Shown here piece after piece: positions 7,819 through 15,604 of a DNA stretch of 15,604 bases. A model generated the notes under the pieces. It was not told where the DNA came from and ran no database searches. It worked only from the letters and a program-made list of their open reading frames with translations. Each line of letters opens with the position of its first letter. The first letter of the stretch is position 1. Source of the stretch: a virus (lineage: Duplodnaviria; Heunggongvirae; Uroviricota; Caudoviricetes); the IMG/VR virus record IMGVR_UViG_2657245483_000005. The stretch is one strand, 5' to 3'. The position numbers and the translations under genes were made by a program.

Positions 7819-8889
7819 ATGACTATTAACTGGAATCGCCATTTTGAACTGCGGCTTCTGAACGACAAGGGGAATGGCATATCCCTGTCGGACTTTAAAG
7901 TTACCTTCGCAATCGACTGGTTTAACTCGATGTGGCCACGTGTGGCGACGCTTAAAATTTACAACCTCAAGCGTGACACAATCACCCGGATTACGGGGGA
8001 TGAGTTTTCTCGCATTACCATCATAGCCGGTTATAACGGCCTGGCGCCGACGGTTACTGAAAGCGAGGTTGGGCAGGTTACCGAGATTTCATCTGAGCAA
8101 ACCGGCCAGACGCGCGGGCAAAATTACGGAGTCATTTTTGATGGGGAGATTCGTTTTACGATAACCGGGCGCGATAATCCTACCGATATTTTTACGCTAA
8201 TTCAGTCGGTAGATGGTCATAAGGCGTTCAACGAAGCCGTATCGTCCGGCAGCCTGGCGGCAGGATATAAGCTTGCCGACGTGCATACACTTCTGATGAA
8301 GGACTTTTCGCCTTACGGCATCACCCAGGGCATCACCGGGCAGTTCCCTGACAGGGTGATGCCACGCGGTCGCGTCTTCTTCGGCGCAACGCGCGACTAC
8401 ATGAGCAACCTAGCGGCGCAGTGCGAGGCTAACTGGCAATTTGTCGACGGCCAGCTGCAAATGGTGCCTGAGAATAAATATCTCCATGAAGCGATCGTGC
8501 TTAACACCAAAACTGGCCTGGTCGGTATGCCTCAGCAAACCATGGGGGCAGGCGTTAATGTGCGCTGTCTCATTAATCCAAACATTCGGGTTAACGGGCT
8601 TATTCAGTTGAACCAGGACTCGGTGTATCGCTCGCAATTACCGAACGATGAGATCCAAAGATCACAGGCAAGGATTACTGAGGCAAATGATAATGGTAAT
8701 CTTAGTACAGGCAGCGCGACGCTTGCGCAGCCCGCCAGTGTGGCAACTGATGGCGTTTACATAGTTCAGTCAATCAGCTACACCGGCGATACGAGAGGGA
8801 ATCCGTGGTATATGGATCTCATGTGTATGGCCAGAGGGGCGCGTGATTTACAATCGAATACGGCCCTACAGCGAACGGCTCCACAATGA
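7819..8889 (+). CDS. Baseplate hub protein (Mu gp44 / P2 gpD-like, tentative)
   Basis: 356-aa ORF located where the hub sits in Mu/P2-like baseplate modules, upstream of the spike, gpW-like, gpJ-like and gpI-like genes. Confidence 0.5.
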   Translation: MTINWNRHFELRLLNDKGNGISLSDFKVTFAIDWFNSMWPRVATLKIYNLKRDTITRITGDEFSRITIIAGYNGLAPTVTESEVGQVTEISSEQTGQTRGQNYGVIFDGEIRFTITGRDNPTDIFTLIQSVDGHKAFNEAVSSGSLAAGYKLADVHTLLMKDFSPYGITQGITGQFPDRVMPRGRVFFGATRDYMSNLAAQCEANWQFVDGQLQMVPENKYLHEAIVLNTKTGLVGMPQQTMGAGVNVRCLINPNIRVNGLIQLNQDSVYRSQLPNDEIQRSQARITEANDNGNLSTGSATLAQPASVATDGVYIVQSISYTGDTRGNPWYMDLMCMARGARDLQSNTALQRTAPQ

Positions 8890-9242
8890 AAAAAATACTT
8901 TTTTTGGTTTCTTTAGCATTCGTCAGTTTTTCTTCTACAGCGGCAAACACCGCTTATATGAAGTGTGGTCCCTTTACTTTCTCAACCTCATCAAGCAACG
9001 ACGGATATCCGAGGATAAACGGAGCAAAGCCTGATAGTCAGAAGGTGACATTCCTCAAAAAAGAGGGAGATTATGACAATATTAAAATGCAATGGATTGT
9101 CATGAATGAGAATTCTGGGCAGCGCTATGGTCTTGATTATATAAAACGCAATGGGAGAGGGATACTCAATGCCGAGGCCATCAGAATGAACATGAATGAA
9201 CCTCGAGTGTTTGGAACTTACGACTGCGTGAAGGCTAAGTAA
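8886..9242 (+). CDS. Small secreted protein of unknown function, cargo gene, AT-rich
   Basis: N-terminal signal peptide MKKILFLVSLAFVSFSSTAA with no lipobox, two Cys in the mature part, and composition sharply AT-richer than the flanking genes. The start overlaps the hub stop (ATGA at 8886-8889). Confidence 0.7.
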   Translation: MKKILFLVSLAFVSFSSTAANTAYMKCGPFTFSTSSSNDGYPRINGAKPDSQKVTFLKKEGDYDNIKMQWIVMNENSGQRYGLDYIKRNGRGILNAEAIRMNMNEPRVFGTYDCVKAK

Positions 9243-9251
9243 TTTAATAAA

Positions 9252-9272
9252 GGCGCCGGAACTACCGGCGCT
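9252..9272. terminator. GC-rich hairpin between convergent genes (candidate bidirectional terminator, better for the minus-strand gene)
   Basis: ggcgccgg / aacta / ccggcgct forms a 7-bp GC stem plus one G-U pair. On the minus strand it is followed by the U/A-rich tract ttattaaatt; on the plus strand the T-run is interrupted. Confidence 0.5.
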
Positions 9273-9275
9273 CAG

Positions 9276-9626
9276 TTACTCGTCTTTAAAACTTATAATT
9301 TTGTACTGCTCCAGTACTTCTGAAAGCTCCTTTGATGTCAGATTTTGTATTTCGATCGTACCTTTTTCAGTGGTTACCGTTATTTTTTTTGATGATCTGG
9401 TCTGTAACCATTTTCTCGCTATCGATGCAATGGCGATACAAGCTGGTGATGATGTGATAACGGTAATAGATATTTCGAGAATTGTGCCAATAGCGCCAGG
9501 AGAATCACCCGTTCTGACTCTTTTACTTACTACATAGTCATTAGCGGGTATGTTATCCTGGATTACAGGAAGTAACTCTTTCCAAATAGCTGGAGTAAAT
9601 TTTATGGTTGTTTCTGATTTTGGCAT
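9276..9626 (-). CDS. Hypothetical cytoplasmic protein, cargo gene, AT-rich
   Basis: 116-aa minus-strand ORF inside the AT-rich insertion, hydrophilic and balanced in composition. The plus-strand ORFs over the same DNA look like antisense junk. No strong RBS was seen, so the exact start is uncertain. Confidence 0.55.
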   Translation of the reverse strand: MPKSETTIKFTPAIWKELLPVIQDNIPANDYVVSKRVRTGDSPGAIGTILEISITVITSSPACIAIASIARKWLQTRSSKKITVTTEKGTIEIQNLTSKELSEVLEQYKIISFKDE

Positions 9627-9805
9627 AAAGGTTTCAGGCCCCTATCGAGAGAAGCTAAAAATTGCCTACCGGCTTTTCCTTAGCAGCCTGTATCTTGCTA
9701 CAAATCACGACGTTACCGTGGTTCTAAGCAAAACCTATATTAAGAGCTGCAATGAAGATAAATAGCACGCATTAACTCACCCTCAAATCCTGACATTTGA
9801 TCAGT

Positions 9806-9827
9806 AACCCGCCTCGGCGGGTTTTTT
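9806..9827 (+). terminator. Rho-independent terminator (plus strand)
   Basis: aacccgcc / tcg / ggcgggtt is a perfect 8-bp stem with a 3-nt loop, followed by tttttt; it ends 18 bp before the spike gene ATG. Confidence 0.75.
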
Positions 9828-9844
9828 ATTACCTGGAGAAAGCT

Positions 9845-10498
9845 ATGCCAGTATCAGCCCGCGCGCAGGACGGCAACGAATCGCAGACTCTTGAGGCGCA
9901 CCGCCACGCCATTTTCGGCAGCCTGCGCGTGGCTTTGCCGGGGATCATCCAGTCCTTTGACCCTGAAACAGTGACATGCACCGTGCAGCCAGCCATCTAC
10001 GGTCAGCGGCTCAGCGACGATGGCGCTCTGGTTTCTGAGGAGATACCGATTTTGCCAGACGTTCCAGTGGTGTTCCCCCGCGGCGGTGGCTGCACGTTAA
10101 CCTTCCCGGTAAAGGCCGGTGACGAGTGCCTCCTGGTCTTCTCCGATCGCTGCATCGACTTCTGGTGGCAGAGCGGCGGGGTGCAGGAACCGGTTGACCC
10201 GCGCCAGCATGACCTGAGTGATGCGTTTGCCATTGTGGGTCCGCAGTCGCAGGCGCAGAAAATCAGCAGCATCAGTACCAGTGCGGTTGAACTGCGCAGT
10301 GACGACGGTGGAACAAAACTGAGCCTTAACCCTTCATCCGGAGCGATAACGGGAACCGCGCCGGGAGGCTTCAACCTTAACGGTCTGAAAATTCTGCCTG
10401 ACGGCCGCCTGCAGCTGGTGGATGGCTCCATGGTTGATAAGCATACGCATGGCGGCGTGGAAGTCGGCGGCAGCAATACGAAACCACTGGGAGGGTAA
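9845..10498 (+). CDS. Baseplate central spike protein (gpV / Mu gp45-like)
   Basis: ATG at 9845 with GGAGA 7 nt upstream; the track's ATG at 9797 lies within the terminator. 217 aa, positioned after the hub, with an HxH motif (HTH, 10442-10450) near the C-terminus as in iron-binding spike apices. Confidence 0.55.
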   Translation: MPVSARAQDGNESQTLEAHRHAIFGSLRVALPGIIQSFDPETVTCTVQPAIYGQRLSDDGALVSEEIPILPDVPVVFPRGGGCTLTFPVKAGDECLLVFSDRCIDFWWQSGGVQEPVDPRQHDLSDAFAIVGPQSQAQKISSISTSAVELRSDDGGTKLSLNPSSGAITGTAPGGFNLNGLKILPDGRLQLVDGSMVDKHTHGGVEVGGSNTKPLGG

Positions 10499-10500
10499 TT

Positions 10501-10854
10501 ATGCGATACCGACGCGAAGACGACGACGGGGACTACACCTTCGGCCAGGGCGATGACACCTTTCTGGTCAACTCACCCGAGTGCGTGGCCCAGGCCGTTA
10601 AAACGCGCTTTGAACTGTGGAAGGGGCAATGGTTTCTGGACACAACCGAGGGCACACCCTATATCCAGTCGGTTCTGGGAAAGCAAAGGCCTGAGGTTTA
10701 TAACCTTGCGATCAGGGATCGCATCAGCACCACACCTGGCGTTCTGTCCATACTGGCCTTTGATACCGTGAATGAAAGCACGACACGCCGGGTAACGTTC
10801 ACAGCCACCATAAACACTATCTACGGACAAACCACCCTTACCAGCGAGGCATAA
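10501..10854 (+). CDS. Baseplate protein (P2 gpW / Mu gp46-like, tentative)
   Basis: 117-aa ORF between the spike and the baseplate J-like gene; assignment is by position and size. Confidence 0.5.
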   Translation: MRYRREDDDGDYTFGQGDDTFLVNSPECVAQAVKTRFELWKGQWFLDTTEGTPYIQSVLGKQRPEVYNLAIRDRISTTPGVLSILAFDTVNESTTRRVTFTATINTIYGQTTLTSEA

Positions 10855-12054
10855 ATGGCCCTCAATTTGGACACGCTCGGCTTATCGGCAACGGTAACCG
10901 CTGAGGGGATCAGCGCGCCTGATTACCAGACAATACTGGACACCCTGACCAACTACTTTAAGCAGATATATGGCAGCGATGCTTATCTGGATCCTGACAG
11001 CAAAGACGGGCAGATGGTGGCGCTGGTGGCCCTGGCTATTCACGATGCTAACAACACGGCCATTGCTGTTTACAACAGCTTTTCGCCTGCCACCGCTTAT
11101 GGCGCAGGGCTGAGCAAGAACGTGAAAATAAACGGTATTAAAAGGAGAACGGCTACCAACTCAACGGTTGATTTGCTGCTTACCGGCGCGGCCGGTACGA
11201 CCATTTCGAATGGCTCCGTCAGGGATAAGAATGGCCTGGTCTGGAGCATGCCGGCTTCCGTGGTAATTGGTTTAGACGGGACGGCGACGGTCACTGCCAC
11301 CTGCTCAAATAGCGGCGCAGTGGCCGCGCTGTCCGGAACGGTCACGACCATTAACACACCGACCCGCGGCTGGACTTCGGTAACTAACCCCGCGGCGGCC
11401 ACCGTCGGATCCCCGGCGGAAACCGACGCAGAGCTGCGCATCCGGCAGGGGCAGAGTGTCGCGCTACCCTCCATCACGCCGTTTGAAGGGGTGGACGGCG
11501 CGATAGTGAACGTTGCAGGGGTTACACGTCACAAGCTCTACGAGAATGATACCGGCACGACCGACAGTAATGGGCTGCCGCCACACTCTATCTCTGCCAT
11601 CGTGGATGGCGGCGATCTGACTGAAATCGCCCAGGCCATCCGGGGCAATAAGGGGCAGGGGGTGTCAACGTATGGTGCGACAGCCGTCACGGTGCCGGAT
11701 AAATACGGTAATCCCCATGTGATTCGCTTCTCCCGGTCAACGGATGTTCCTATTTATGGACATATAACGCTGAAAGCTTTCGCGGGTTACACATCACAAA
11801 TAGGTAAGGAGATTCAGCAGGCCGTTGCGGATTACATCAACGACCTGACGATCGGTGATTCGGTGCTGCTGAGCCGCATTTATTCACCTGCCAACCTCGG
11901 GGTGGTCAGCGGCGGTAGCGCGCGTTATTACGACATCCAGGAATTACTCATCGGTAAATCAGCAGGATCCGTAGCATCGGCAAACATAACCATAGCCTAC
12001 GACGAATCAGCTTCATGTAAACCGGCAAACATCGTTATCACGGTGACGTCATGA
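10855..12054 (+). CDS. Baseplate J-like protein (gpJ / Mu gp47 family)
   Basis: 399-aa ORF; size, position and the ETDAELRIRQ segment fit the baseplate J family. Confidence 0.7.
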   Translation: MALNLDTLGLSATVTAEGISAPDYQTILDTLTNYFKQIYGSDAYLDPDSKDGQMVALVALAIHDANNTAIAVYNSFSPATAYGAGLSKNVKINGIKRRTATNSTVDLLLTGAAGTTISNGSVRDKNGLVWSMPASVVIGLDGTATVTATCSNSGAVAALSGTVTTINTPTRGWTSVTNPAAATVGSPAETDAELRIRQGQSVALPSITPFEGVDGAIVNVAGVTRHKLYENDTGTTDSNGLPPHSISAIVDGGDLTEIAQAIRGNKGQGVSTYGATAVTVPDKYGNPHVIRFSRSTDVPIYGHITLKAFAGYTSQIGKEIQQAVADYINDLTIGDSVLLSRIYSPANLGVVSGGSARYYDIQELLIGKSAGSVASANITIAYDESASCKPANIVITVTS

Positions 12055-12731
12055 GTAGGTACACGGATCTAATCACTAACTACCACGCCACTAAGCCGAA
12101 ATACCTCGATCACATCGATCTTAGTACCCGTCCCCTGATTGATATCACGTCAGCCACAAGGGGCCTGGTGAGTGCGTTTGACATTGATACGGCTGTTGGC
12201 GTGCAACTCGATATTCTCGGACTCTGGATTGGACGTAGCCGTATAGTCAGCCAGCCCATTAGTGGCGTTTATTTCAGTTGGGACACGGAGGGGCTCGGAT
12301 ATGACCAGGGCGTATGGCAGGGGCCATATGATCCTGACTCCGGCTATACGACGCTTAGCGATGATACCTATCGCACTATTCTGAAAGCAAAAATCGCTAT
12401 TAACAACTGGGACGGGCGTAACGACTCGCTTCCGGACATTCTTGACACTGCCACAGTGGGTTCGGGCCTGAAGATGCAGATCGTCGACAATCAGGACATG
12501 ACGATATCGGTCTGGGTATTTCCCGAGACTGATATTTCTGATGTGTCTCTCGAACTGATCGCCGCTATCAAACAGGGCTATCTCACCGTTAAAGCCGCTG
12601 GCGTCTGGGCCGGTGATGTTGAAATGCCTTCGGTTGAAACACCGTCCGAAGGAACAAAATTCTTTGGATTTGACATGGATAACGAATACATCGCCGGTTT
12701 TGATGACGGCGCATGGGGGAGATTACTTTAA
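12051..12731 (+). CDS. Baseplate wedge / tail-fibre attachment protein (gpI-like, DUF2612-like)
   Basis: ATGA overlap with the gpJ-like stop; 226 aa, immediately upstream of the tail fibre gene. Confidence 0.6.
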   Translation: MSRYTDLITNYHATKPKYLDHIDLSTRPLIDITSATRGLVSAFDIDTAVGVQLDILGLWIGRSRIVSQPISGVYFSWDTEGLGYDQGVWQGPYDPDSGYTTLSDDTYRTILKAKIAINNWDGRNDSLPDILDTATVGSGLKMQIVDNQDMTISVWVFPETDISDVSLELIAAIKQGYLTVKAAGVWAGDVEMPSVETPSEGTKFFGFDMDNEYIAGFDDGAWGRLL

Positions 12732-13510
12732 TGGCTGGAACTAATGATTTTAAAGCGTTTGCGACAGATGCTAATGCAAATGTTACCTCGCAGGAGGAAT
12801 GGGAGACGCTAACCGCACTGAAGAAAGGATTCTCCTCGGGTAAAGCATCCAGCGCACAGGTCAGTAAAGCGCTGCGCCAACCGTCGACGATGGCGGCTGT
12901 ACTGGGGCAGTTTATCGCGAACGCCGAACTGGACGCGCTCGATGATGGTGACGTTGATGGACTGGTGGCAAAGCTGGCGACAGCGATTACCACAAACCTT
13001 GGTTTGGGAGAAGGCTCAGCATTACCCGTTGGCGTACCTGTTCCGTGGCCTTCAGCCACACCGCCGACAGGCTGGCTGAAATGCAACGGTGCCGCTTTTT
13101 CTGCTGAAGAATACCCGGAACTGGCAAAGGCTTACCCGACAAATAAATTGCCTGATTTACGTGGTGAGTTTATTCGTGGCTGGGATGACGGGCGTGGAGT
13201 GGATAGCGGTCGTACTTTATTAACGAATCAAGAGCATGCAGTAATTTCTCATAATCATGGAATACCTACAAAAGTGGGGTCAGTTACTAATATCCCGTAT
13301 GGAATAGAACAGGTTATATCTGATGAAACCATTTTTTCATCAGCAAAAACAGTTGGTGTGGATTACTGGTCTAACAGTGAAAGAGTTTTTACTTATACCT
13401 CTGGTGGAAGAAATGGTGCTGAATCAGTGAGTTCACCTGATGCCTCCTCTTTAATTAAAGAAACCAGACCACGGAACCTAGCATTTGCGTATATCGTGAG
13501 GGCTGCATAA
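12731..13510 (+). CDS. Tail fibre protein: constant N-terminal part (codons 1-90) plus currently joined variable C-terminal part
   Basis: TAATG overlap start at 12731 (an alternative in-frame ATG lies at 12713). The C-terminal part contains LPDLRGEFIRGWDDGRGVDSGRTL, a collar-type motif I recall from tail fibre proteins. A crossover site sits at codons 86-94. Confidence 0.8.
   Translation: MAGTNDFKAFATDANANVTSQEEWETLTALKKGFSSGKASSAQVSKALRQPSTMAAVLGQFIANAELDALDDGDVDGLVAKLATAITTNLGLGEGSALPVGVPVPWPSATPPTGWLKCNGAAFSAEEYPELAKAYPTNKLPDLRGEFIRGWDDGRGVDSGRTLLTNQEHAVISHNHGIPTKVGSVTNIPYGIEQVISDETIFSSAKTVGVDYWSNSERVFTYTSGGRNGAESVSSPDASSLIKETRPRNLAFAYIVRAA
12987..13012. repeat. Left crossover site of the invertible segment (hix/gix-like 26-bp imperfect palindrome)
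   Basis: ttaccacaaaccttggtttgggagaa, central dinucleotide TT at 12999-13000. It is 21/26 identical to the reverse complement of the site at 14971-14996. Confidence 0.7.
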
Positions 13511-14112
13511 TGGTGAAAGCAAAATTAAACAGTGCGTTTATTGCCACCGTGGCAGGTGAAATCACTGTGTACAACTACCGGGGCGACACCCGCGAATACA
13601 TATCCTCATCGGTTGAGTATCTGCCTGTGGGGGTGGGTATTCCTGCCAATTCCTGTACCGATGCGCCCGGCACACATAAAGCTGGTTATGCAATCTGCCG
13701 TTCTGCAGATTTTAACTCATGGGAATATGTGCCAGACCATCGCGGTGAAACGGTATATAGCACTGAAACAGGAGAATCAAAAGAAATCACAGCTCCGGGT
13801 GATTACTCTGAAAATACAACTACTATCGCCCCGTTAACGCCATTCGATAAATGGGATGGTGAGAAATGGGTGACCGATACTGAGGCACAGCATAGCGCCG
13901 CAGTAGACGTGGCAGAAGCACAGCGCCAGTCGCTGATTGATGCTGCTATGGCTTCCATCAGTCTGATTCAGCTGAAATTGCAGGCCGGGCGGCAACTGAC
14001 GCAAGCAGAAATCACTCGCCTTAACGCTGTGCTGGATTACATTGACACGGTGACGGCAACAGATACCAGCACCGCGCCGGATGTCATCTGGCCTGAACTG
14101 CCGGAGGCGTAG
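13510..14112 (+). CDS. Tail fibre assembly protein (Mu U / lambda Tfa-like), currently expressed orientation
   Basis: TAATG overlap with the fibre stop; 200 aa; C-terminal LDYIDTV..DTSTAPDVIWPELP matches the conserved Tfa C-terminal pattern. Confidence 0.75.
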   Translation: MVKAKLNSAFIATVAGEITVYNYRGDTREYISSSVEYLPVGVGIPANSCTDAPGTHKAGYAICRSADFNSWEYVPDHRGETVYSTETGESKEITAPGDYSENTTTIAPLTPFDKWDGEKWVTDTEAQHSAAVDVAEAQRQSLIDAAMASISLIQLKLQAGRQLTQAEITRLNAVLDYIDTVTATDTSTAPDVIWPELPEA

Positions 14113-14527
14113 GCCATTCAATATCTGGAGCACTGGAGGTATCAACCAGTTCCAGTGCGTCCAGATAATCCAGCCACAAATTATATTGCGCCAGTTCCTC
14201 ACTTTTCAGACGACCAATCGCCGCTTTGCCAGGCCACTGATGAGTATTGATGTAGGTATTGACTTCAGAAACCAAAGATATTTTTTTCATTTCAGCCGTC
14301 AACACCTCATCCTCTTTTGAAGGGGGTGGGGAATTAATCCATACTGGCCGTCCTGAACTGTCAGCGCCAATTTCTTTCCCTTCTGGATGCAGCCCAAGAA
14401 ATTGCTCATATGTTTCTCTGGTAATTTCAATAACATCATCAGGAAGCGTTCCCGCATCCTCATATTCTGGAAACAATTCTTGCAGATAAAAACTTTTACT
14501 TCCGGGTGAAAAGAATACTGAGTTCAT
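14084..14527 (-). CDS. Alternative tail fibre assembly protein (U'-like)
   Basis: Minus-strand 147-aa ORF with C-terminal LDYLDALELVDTSSAPDIEWPTPP, matching the Tfa pattern; located directly downstream of the minus-strand fibre tip. Confidence 0.7.
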   Translation of the reverse strand: MNSVFFSPGSKSFYLQELFPEYEDAGTLPDDVIEITRETYEQFLGLHPEGKEIGADSSGRPVWINSPPPSKEDEVLTAEMKKISLVSEVNTYINTHQWPGKAAIGRLKSEELAQYNLWLDYLDALELVDTSSAPDIEWPTPPAVQAR

Positions 14528-14529
14528 TC

Positions 14530-14982
14530 TTACCGTCCAATGATTAATGCTGAGACGCTGGTATCTGAAGGAAAGGCTGCATTCAGTGGTTTGTCGACTT
14601 TGAACACAATCGTATTATTCCCCCTGACAGCGGCAAAAGAACAAACCGCAGTCGCGTATGAACCTGTAATATTACTGGATACACCACCATAAGCTGTTGT
14701 TGATACCAGAGGGATAACGCCCAGCACCTTATTAGGAAATACAAAGGGCAATGTGGCTGTGGCAATATAAGACTTATTAGAACCTGTAATGGCATAAGCA
14801 TTATCAGTCATTCCATTCATCGCCACCGGGCCGCTTATACTTACAGTAACCATCTGAATGATTAGCCCGTCAGGTTGACGAATCACAAAATTTCCATTGC
14901 CACCAGTAACCGTCCAGAAAGACATATCAGGGATTTGGTTTTCCCCGTTGCCCACATTCCGTTTTGCCGCTTCTCCCAAACC
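14530..14982 (-). CDS. Alternative tail fibre C-terminal cassette (Sv'-like), startless, fused to the fibre gene only after inversion
   Basis: Minus-strand frame open from the right crossover site to the stop at 14530. The sequence after the core encodes GLGE, the same residues that follow the core in the plus-strand fibre, and the frame matches. Confidence 0.7.
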   Translation of the reverse strand, partial: GLGEAAKRNVGNGENQIPDMSFWTVTGGNGNFVIRQPDGLIIQMVTVSISGPVAMNGMTDNAYAITGSNKSYIATATLPFVFPNKVLGVIPLVSTTAYGGVSSNITGSYATAVCSFAAVRGNNTIVFKVDKPLNAAFPSDTSVSALIIGR

Positions 14983-14996
14983 AACCTTTTTTATAA
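14971..14996. repeat. Right crossover site of the invertible segment (hix/gix-like)
   Basis: ttctcccaaaccaaccttttttataa, central AA at 14983-14984; the inner 14 bp are identical to the inner half of the left site in inverted orientation. It lies 60 bp upstream of the invertase ATG. Confidence 0.7.
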
Positions 14997-15026
14997 CCAT
15001 CAAAAATCTGGTGATGCTTCGCCGTT

Positions 15027-15049
15027 TCTCCTGTTTTCATAACAGGAGA
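15027..15049 (+). promoter_or_regulatory. Perfect 9-bp stem hairpin that includes the invertase Shine-Dalgarno
   Basis: tctcctgtt / ttcat / aacaggaga; the right arm contains AGGAG, 7 nt before the ATG at 15056. Confidence 0.5.
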
Positions 15050-15055
15050 AATCCC

Positions 15056-15604
15056 ATGATTTACGGTTATGCCCGAGTATCAACAAACCACCAGGACACT
15101 GAATTGCAACTAACGGCGCTCAAGTCAGCGGGTTGTGAGAAAATTTTTGAAGAGCATGCCAGCGGGAGGAAATCGAATCGGCCGGTTCTAAAACGGCTGA
15201 TCGCCACTATGCAGCCGGGGGATGAACTGGTGGTCTGGAAGCTGGACAGGATAGGCCGCAACGTTCTGCATGCGCTGTTGATGTTCCAGCAGTTACAGGA
15301 AAAGGGTATCAACTTCCGCAGTATTACCGATGGCGTGGATCTCAAAACAGCCAGCGGCCGCTATAACTTTCGTAACATCCTTTCCGCAGCACAATATGAA
15401 TCTGATCTTAATAGCGAACGTACCTTAGCAGGGCTGGCCGTAGCCAGGGCAAAAGGGCGAGTTGGTGGTCGCAGGCCTAAGTTCACGGATGAGCAATGGC
15501 GGGAAATGGGGGAGCGGATGGCAACCGGTGAATCACGACAAAGCGTATCAAAAACGTATGGAGTAGGGCTCTCAACTCTGTATAAAAAGTTTCCAGCTAG
15601 CTGA
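15056..15604 (+). CDS. Serine DNA invertase (Hin/Gin/Cin/Pin family)
   Basis: Starts MIYGYARVSTNHQDTELQ, with the catalytic Ser in the RVST motif, and has a C-terminal helix-turn-helix (GESRQSVSKTYGVGLSTLYKKFPA). The track ORF begins at 14897, but the family-conserved N-terminus and RBS place the start at 15056. The stop is at the window end. Confidence 0.93.
   Translation: MIYGYARVSTNHQDTELQLTALKSAGCEKIFEEHASGRKSNRPVLKRLIATMQPGDELVVWKLDRIGRNVLHALLMFQQLQEKGINFRSITDGVDLKTASGRYNFRNILSAAQYESDLNSERTLAGLAVARAKGRVGGRRPKFTDEQWREMGERMATGESRQSVSKTYGVGLSTLYKKFPAS

Follow-up and report, generated by a model that had tools for sequence, protein, structure and literature searches.

A probable invertible tail-fibre switch of the e14 P-segment type in a contractile-tailed prophage of Escherichia coli

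Does the tail-fibre gene near the right-hand end of a 15,604-nucleotide (nt) stretch of virus DNA (Caudoviricetes, IMG/VR record IMGVR_UViG_2657245483_000005; hereafter the window, by which we mean the whole stretch at its full length) belong to a switch that exchanges one receptor-binding tip for another, and, if so, is the switch still being used? A preliminary description had read the region as an invertible host-range switch. Our answer is that the locus is very probably a Hin/Gin/Cin/Pin-type switch based on site-specific DNA inversion, a homologue of the P segment of prophage e14, which ends the tail module of a contractile-tailed E. coli prophage of about 40 kilobases (kb). The open reading frame (ORF) list and Pfam gave five intact genes at the switch region, namely those for the fibre, two chaperones, the tip B ORF, and a serine recombinase. 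These genes, the parts of the fibre gene, and the two crossover sites are arranged as follows, with lengths in amino acids (aa).

12731-13510, + strand: tail-fibre gene, 259 aa, with a C-terminal collar domain (PF07484, E 1.7e-15)
12731-13000, + strand: constant 5' part of the fibre gene (Sc), codons 1-90, from the ORF list and the sequence
12987-13012, no strand: left crossover site, TTACCACAAACC-TT-GGTTTGGGAGAA, with its core TT at 12999-13000 within codon 90
13001-13510, + strand: tip A (Sv), the collar-domain C-terminal part, 169 aa, expressed in the present orientation
13510-14112, + strand: tail-fibre assembly chaperone for tip A, TfaE-like (Pfam Caudo_TAP, E 5.5e-32)
14084-14527, - strand: tail-fibre assembly chaperone for tip B, TfaP-like (Pfam Caudo_TAP, E 2.7e-28), convergent with the tip A chaperone gene
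14530-15000, - strand: tip B (Sv'), the gp53-like C-terminal tip, which is not used by the fibre in the present orientation
14971-14996, no strand: right crossover site, TTCTCCCAAACC-AA-CCTTTTTTATAA, with its core AA at 14983-14984
15056-15604, + strand: serine DNA invertase, PinL-type, 182 aa (Pfam Resolvase, E 3.6e-39, and HTH_7; PHROG 125 'DNA invertase')

Are the two repeats crossover sites? Both consist of half-sites of 12 base pairs (bp) around a 2-bp core, with matching asymmetric cores TT and AA. On recount, the two 26-bp imperfect palindromes were found in inverted orientation exactly where the preliminary description had placed them, and its statement that the central dinucleotides are compatible for inversion also holds. 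The reverse complement of the right site is TTATAAAAAAGG-TT-GGTTTGGGAGAA, the two sites are complementary at 21 of the 26 positions, and in a repeat search of the region no inverted repeat was longer than this pair (27 nt, 81% complementary). Their inner 14 nt, TTGGTTTGGGAGAA, are identical; with up to two mismatches allowed, this motif was found exactly twice in the window, once per strand, against a chance expectation of 0.09, and none of 200 shuffles gave two matches. When scored against the Din-type 26-bp pattern TTNNNNNAAACCNNGGTTTNNNNNAA, the left site showed no mismatch and the right site showed two. The resemblance of the half-sites to the Hin/Gin pattern TT..C..AAACC, which had also been put forward, is true of three of the four half-sites and fails for the outer half of the right site (TTATAAAAAAGG). 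No third crossover site was found in the window with 2-3 mismatches allowed, and a multi-site shufflon (shufflon-like, or resembling p15B Min or the three-site P2-like loci) was rejected, as the window holds two sites only. An exact scan for the 27-nt left site in a collection of contigs with one genome per species gave no match, which is uninformative either way.

Would inversion between these sites leave functional reading frames? Codon 90 of the fibre gene is CTT (12998-13000) and spans the left core, and GLGE comes next on both strands, so that the frame arithmetic given earlier is correct. When 12999-14984 (1986 bp) was flipped in silico, the result was an in-frame ORF of 240 aa, in which the 150 tip B codons running downward from 14982 join the 90 constant codons; the predicted fusion to a tip of about 150 aa is thus reproduced, and the same protein is found verbatim in nature. 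The PHROG matches to the fibre also split at about residue 84-90, with N-terminal families covering residues 3-88 and tip families covering 84-259. The upstream DUF2612 wedge gene and the fibre gene overlap at stop and start (TAATG), the start of the tip A chaperone overlaps the fibre stop in the same way (TAATG), and the ATG of the tip B chaperone lies 2 bases past the tip B stop, so each tip has a chaperone of its own close behind it on its strand. The earlier claim that inversion would bring a second assembly chaperone into play therefore agrees with the gene order, as tip B has its own Caudo_TAP chaperone on its strand. The 29-bp overlap of the two convergent chaperone genes (14084-14112) was likewise found as described, and e14 and sibling prophages share it at the same length. 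The right site ends 60 bp ahead of the invertase ATG at 15056, again as had been stated. The Pfam score of tip B for Gp53-like_C is 24.4 bits, slightly below the cut-off of 24.9, and its relatives carry a gp53-like annotation; in the present orientation the tip B ORF has its own ATG at 15000 (MVIKKV-GLGE...) and encodes 156 aa. NCBIfam offered no informative family for any of the five switch-region proteins.

Do both states of the segment exist? Public E. coli data contain the native 259-aa fibre verbatim (WP_057688093.1, 32 contigs) as well as the flipped 240-aa fibre (WP_244473369.1 and others, 16 contigs). At the other end of the segment, the present invertase-proximal ORF of 156 aa is found verbatim on 89 contigs, and its reciprocal product (MVIKKV plus the collar tip, 175 aa) is found verbatim in E. 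coli data as WP_072145017.1. The representative of the 98%-identical cluster of the flipped fusion protein is a diverged relative in the flipped orientation. When complete E. coli genomes were searched by megablast with the entire locus flipped in silico, no match covered 80% or more, so the exact flipped allele is documented at the protein level only, from draft genomes.

The siblings of the prophage tell a similar story at the level of gene order. Among those lying beside yciI-tonB, a collar-type or other tip comes first and the gp53-like tip is near the invertase in Res13-Sevr-PER07-33, CH468, and TOK-001, whereas the gp53-like tip comes first and the collar tip is near the invertase in COL60J and G3/10. 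The gp53-like tip also comes first in Citrobacter phage Omnitron, in strain ES5, and in a metagenomic relative. COL60J and the window agree at 100% as far as 13013 and again from 14970 on, and of its segment between the sites about 860 bp align, reversed, at 86-96%. In every relative examined, the breakpoints lie at the crossover sites and the invertase is adjacent. Junction queries against 5,426 complete E. coli genomes indicated that about 13 carry this constant part, about 7 in one orientation and 6 in the other. Taken together, these three comparative lines (verbatim products, siblings, and the junction split) suggest that the segment flips, or did so very recently.

How would the switch work? 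The serine invertase would bind as dimers to both 26-bp sites, and the bound dimers would synapse. Ser9 of each subunit would then cut at the central dinucleotide and leave 2-nt overhangs, one half of the tetramer, carrying a pair of half-sites, would rotate by 180 degrees, and religation would require the TT/AA overhangs to pair, which would invert the 1986-bp segment; the general chemistry of serine invertases is taken from published work (PMC3798978, PMC4513852). Because the core would be regenerated, codon 90 would stay CTT and the junction peptide NLGLGE would be unchanged. In the present state, the 90 constant codons would be followed by the 169-aa collar-domain tip and then by the TfaE-like chaperone; in the inverted state, the same 90 codons would continue in frame through NLGLGE into the 150-aa gp53-like tip, followed by the TfaP-like chaperone. 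A population of lysogens would thus give virions bearing either of two receptor-binding tips. We infer the chemistry at this locus from the enzyme family, and host-range switching from the Mu, P1, and e14-type systems.

Is the adjacent enzyme equipped for this task? The invertase aligns end to end with Gin (3UJ3), its best solved relative (E 1.4e-56), and shares 55% identity with PinE, 52% with Gin, and 46% with Hin; R7, S9, R65, and R68 are invariant in the alignment of the window invertase with these three enzymes. It is identical to PinL of phage phi80 over 172 aa and is not an orthologue of PinE, and the DNA of its gene is 92.9% identical to that of phi80 and 99.8% to that of HK225. A literature search for pinL turned up no functional study. 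Residues reported to be uniquely conserved in the invertases that depend on Fis and the enhancer are K47, R48, and K51 in helix B of Hin, together with Q151, R154, and L155 (McLean et al., PMC3798978). Residues 139-190 of the Hin sequence used for the alignment matched the solved Hin DNA-binding domain 1HCR (103 bits, E 1.3e-28; identity not displayed). At these positions, and at those of the dimer lock, the window invertase compares with Hin as follows.

Hin K47, helix B, Fis/enhancer activation: kept in the window invertase
Hin R48, helix B, Fis/enhancer activation: kept
Hin K51, helix B, Fis/enhancer activation: Ala in the window invertase
Hin Q151, helix 1 of the DNA-binding domain: Glu
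Hin R154, helix 1 of the DNA-binding domain: Glu
Hin L155, helix 1 of the DNA-binding domain: Arg
Hin F105, dimer lock: Asn
Hin M109, dimer lock: Ile

In addition, Hin H107 is Arg in the window invertase. At F105 and M109 of Hin, about half of the substitutions free the enzyme from its dependence on Fis (PMC4513852), and H107Y makes Hin Fis-independent (PMC3798978).

Several of these results weigh against a switch that turns under the control of its own enzyme. Four of the six conserved residues of the Fis/enhancer type are absent from the window invertase in the alignment with Hin. Inversion systems of this family have a cis-acting recombinational enhancer with two Fis sites, most often placed within the 5' part of the invertase gene; a simple scan for G-N13-C with an A/T centre revealed no convincing pair of Fis sites. 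The Fis-like motifs located in gin at +93 and +139 correspond to G/C-rich codons at the homologous positions of the window invertase, and an A/T tract, GAGAAAATTTTTGAAG, at about 15135-15150 fits just half of the Fis motif. Since the activation residues differ and no convincing Fis sites were found, the invertase is only putatively active, and its regulation may be altered. Moreover, the adjacent enzyme need not be the acting one, because invertases of other K-12 prophages flip the e14 segment in trans (PinQ, PinR, and PinE all flip it; PMC12529663). As to the orientations themselves, they were observed between isolates only, and the flipped siblings known from complete genomes have segment alleles that have diverged (86-97% identity), which makes cassette replacement inseparable from inversion for these siblings. 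The verbatim fusion proteins are the stronger evidence for inversion in this respect.

From the same points one might argue that the switch is a fossil or is driven in trans, in other words that the adjacent PinL-type invertase no longer, or never, drives inversion and that the observed orientations reflect rare past events or the Pin-type invertases of other prophages. The missing residues and the dimer-lock substitutions (PMC3798978, PMC4513852) would fit this explanation, as would the truncation of the phi80 copy of the same enzyme beside tip remnants, the ribosome-binding site of the invertase buried in a strong hairpin, and the cross-acting K-12 enzymes, whose e14 target has the same inner half-site (PMC12529663). 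However, the enzyme is full length and keeps Ser9, Arg7, Arg65, and Arg68, every gene of both cassettes is intact, the two orientations are similarly frequent among close relatives that all have this invertase, and both exact reciprocal products exist. We therefore consider a fossil or trans-driven switch improbable and continue to favour a switch with a resident invertase.

What, then, might restrain the resident invertase? One candidate lies directly upstream of its start codon.

15024-15052, + strand: palindrome/hairpin with a 12-bp stem, TTTCTCCTGTTT-TCATA-AACAGGAGAAA, directly upstream of the invertase start and burying the AGGAGA ribosome-binding site

The predicted RNA fold of 15010-15075 has a free energy of -25.1 kcal/mol (z -5.4), and none of 200 shuffles was as stable. 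A homologous repeat is annotated as 'IR3' in phi80. The outer TTCTCC/GGAGAA of the hairpin equals the outer bases of the inner crossover half-site. Because the ribosome-binding site is buried and the outer bases equal those of the crossover half-site, the element could be either an RNA hairpin that masks the ribosome-binding site, and hence a candidate brake on invertase expression, or an operator for the invertase. A scan for promoters and terminators performed no better than chance and yielded no promoter for the invertase or for the invertase-proximal ORF. We tentatively speculate, as a rather doubtful idea, that the PinL-type invertase of this switch may act without canonical Fis/enhancer activation, or through different contacts, and that the hairpin might limit its activity at translation. 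Such a divergent invertase could inform the evolution of Fis/enhancer control in the enzyme family.

Could the two orientations have arisen without any programmed inversion, through homologous recombination at short repeats, cassette replacement, or assembly errors? Tip cassettes do move between unrelated prophages, the segment being 99.4-99.8% identical elsewhere, and many draft contigs end just inside the segment. Nevertheless, the repeats share just 14 identical bases, which is too short for efficient RecA recombination, the sites have the exact 12-2-12 anatomy and the sequence of proven pix sites, and the breakpoints coincide with the sites in every relative examined, with a dedicated invertase adjacent in all of them. 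This explanation is thus highly improbable, and a site-specific switch accounts better for the breakpoints. Concerning the draft assemblies, many E. coli contigs stop 12-50 codons beyond the junction, and some contigs are 1.9-2.0 kb long, one of them exactly 1986 bp. Contigs that end within the segment and contigs of its size could reflect mixed orientation in the cultures or else tip cassettes present in several copies; these contigs were not relied on as evidence of mixed orientation, as multi-copy tip cassettes would break assemblies likewise.

The movement of cassettes deserves a separate remark. The segment 12994-14989 recurs in several other E. coli genomes, at the identity given above, with non-matching flanks, and the homology of these copies stops within a few bases of both crossover sites. 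In addition, proteins of 245-353 aa join this gp53-like tip to several different constant parts. These findings point to an exchange of tip cassettes between unrelated prophage families at or through the crossover sites. Since the cassettes shared by unrelated prophages have their boundaries exactly at the sites, the crossover sites may also act as exchange points.

Might the output of the switch serve the host rather than the phage? In K-12, StfE2, which is made after inversion of the e14 P segment, masks surface receptors and blocked T2 adsorption (PMC12529663). By analogy, the invertase-proximal ORF (14530-15000, MVIKKV plus the gp53-like tip) could be made as a free receptor-masking protein. 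The gp53-like tip does adjoin the invertase with its own in-frame ATG, which is the arrangement that yields StfE2 in K-12 (PMC12529663), and the 156-aa ORF recurs verbatim on the 89 contigs mentioned above. On the other hand, the prophage that carries the switch appears to be complete and has a fibre that requires a tip, whereas e14 is defective. Neither a promoter-like site nor a clear ribosome-binding site could be identified for the ORF, and the allele of the gp53-like tip differs from K-12 StfP (no BLASTP match at 1e-3). Host defence as the main output appears quite unlikely, and a defence role is at best a possible additional function of a switch that otherwise serves the tail fibre.

The surroundings of the locus agree with a phage function. 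Upstream of the switch, the window encodes the tail sheath, tube, tape measure, baseplate hub, wedge, baseplate J, and DUF2612 wedge proteins, and the invertase is the final prophage gene ahead of yciI in sibling prophages. The sibling in E. coli COL60J is an element of about 40 kb between kch and yciI that carries integrase, RecET, replication, antitermination, lysis, terminase, portal, head, and tail genes. The head, terminase, lysis, replication, and integrase genes of this sibling rule out a tailocin, so that the switch is part of a contractile-tailed temperate phage that appears to be complete. Over 8731-15604, the window is matched at 100% by a public E. coli assembly (SRR1631198). Separately, an ORF of 116 aa on the opposite strand (9276-9626, - strand) lies inside the baseplate module and matches Pfam EACC1 ('Effector Associated Constant Component 1') at 29.1 bits, above the cut-off; the COL60J sibling carries the same EACC1 annotation. 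The ORF resembles a moron, with a possible link to defence.

What does the locus add? As a tail-fibre switch it adds little, since Mu G, P1 C, and e14 P had already established the principle and the proteins are already in RefSeq under generic names. It has some value for annotation, in that the two ORFs beside the invertase, labelled 'hypothetical' or 'phage tail protein', can be named as the alternative tip and its chaperone, and E. coli assemblies and genome comparisons should expect the locus in either orientation. The exchange of tip cassettes between prophage families at crossover sites and the divergent PinL-type invertase are of specialist interest.

Which known system does the locus resemble most? 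Hin/hix, the Salmonella flagellar switch, shares the enzyme family and the 12-2-12 anatomy of the sites, and hix too has one imperfect half-site next to the core. However, Hin flips a promoter, whereas the window segment carries coding tips, and the window enzyme is only 46% identical to Hin and differs from it at K51, Q151, R154, L155, F105, and M109. The logic of the Mu G segment and Gin is that of the window, with Sc-Sv-U against U'-Sv', 26-bp sites, and a small serine invertase just outside the right-hand site; the C segment of P1 and Cin share this logic with Mu. The constant part of Mu is about 170 codons and its segment 3060 bp, compared with 90 codons and 1986 bp in the window, its tips and chaperones are different proteins, and its gix sites are perfect inverted repeats with a TC/GA core. 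The preliminary description had called the locus a case of the Mu G / P1 C architecture, which is right in kind, but it had not named the much closer relative, the P segment of e14. The alignment of the sites to known crossover sites that it had proposed leads to the same relative, as they equal the e14 pix sites at 21 of 26 (left) and 22 of 26 (right) positions and Mu gix at only 17-18 of 26.

With respect to the enzyme, the invertases of HK225 and mEp237 group with the phi80 PinL type, and the palindrome upstream of the start codon is common to phi80 and the window. In phi80 (JX871397.1, 3371-4157), the coding sequence of pinL is shorter, at 172 aa, and lacks the C-terminal recognition helix, whereas the window enzyme is full length, at 182 aa. 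The phi80 gene adjoins only a collar-tip pseudogene fragment, in contrast to the complete switch in the window. Because its invertase is truncated and only this fragment lies beside it, the phi80 pinL locus is what remains of a decayed switch of this type.

The closest relative of the switch as a whole is that of e14, a cryptic prophage of E. coli K-12. Its order stfP-tfaP-tfaE-stfE-pinE is the order of the window, namely constant part, tip, chaperone, convergent chaperone and tip, and invertase, and a collar tip is paired with a gp53-like tip in both. The e14 sites are pixL, CTCTCGAAAACC-TT-GGTTTGGGAGAA, whose inner half is identical to that of the left site of the window, and pixR, TTCTCCCAAACC-AA-CGTTTATGAAAA; the two systems have exactly the same inner half-site, TTCTCCCAAACC, and the same TT/AA cores, and the published e14 repeat is TTGGTTTGGGAGAAGG (PMC12529663). 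The tip A chaperone is 88.5% identical to TfaE of e14 and the tip B chaperone is 56% identical to TfaP, while tip A and the stfE remnant share 58% identity in protein and 92.7% in DNA across the first 219 nt. There are also differences. The gp53-like tip of the window is a different allele from the K-12 StfP tip, the constant part and the outer half-sites differ, and the invertase is of the phi80 PinL type, whereas e14 has PinE. Measured from core to core in the same way, the segment is 1986 bp in the window and 1829 bp in e14, for which a length of 1797 bp has been published. The host element of the window is an apparently complete contractile-tailed prophage at yciI-tonB, whereas e14 is defective and lies at icd. 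The crossover of e14 falls in codon 97 of the 209-aa StfP, within the peptide NLGLGE, and the window has the same peptide at codon 90. A constant part of 90 codons is therefore normal for this type of cassette, and not unusually short as had been supposed. The e14 P segment inverts in culture (PMC12529663, PMC4272514).

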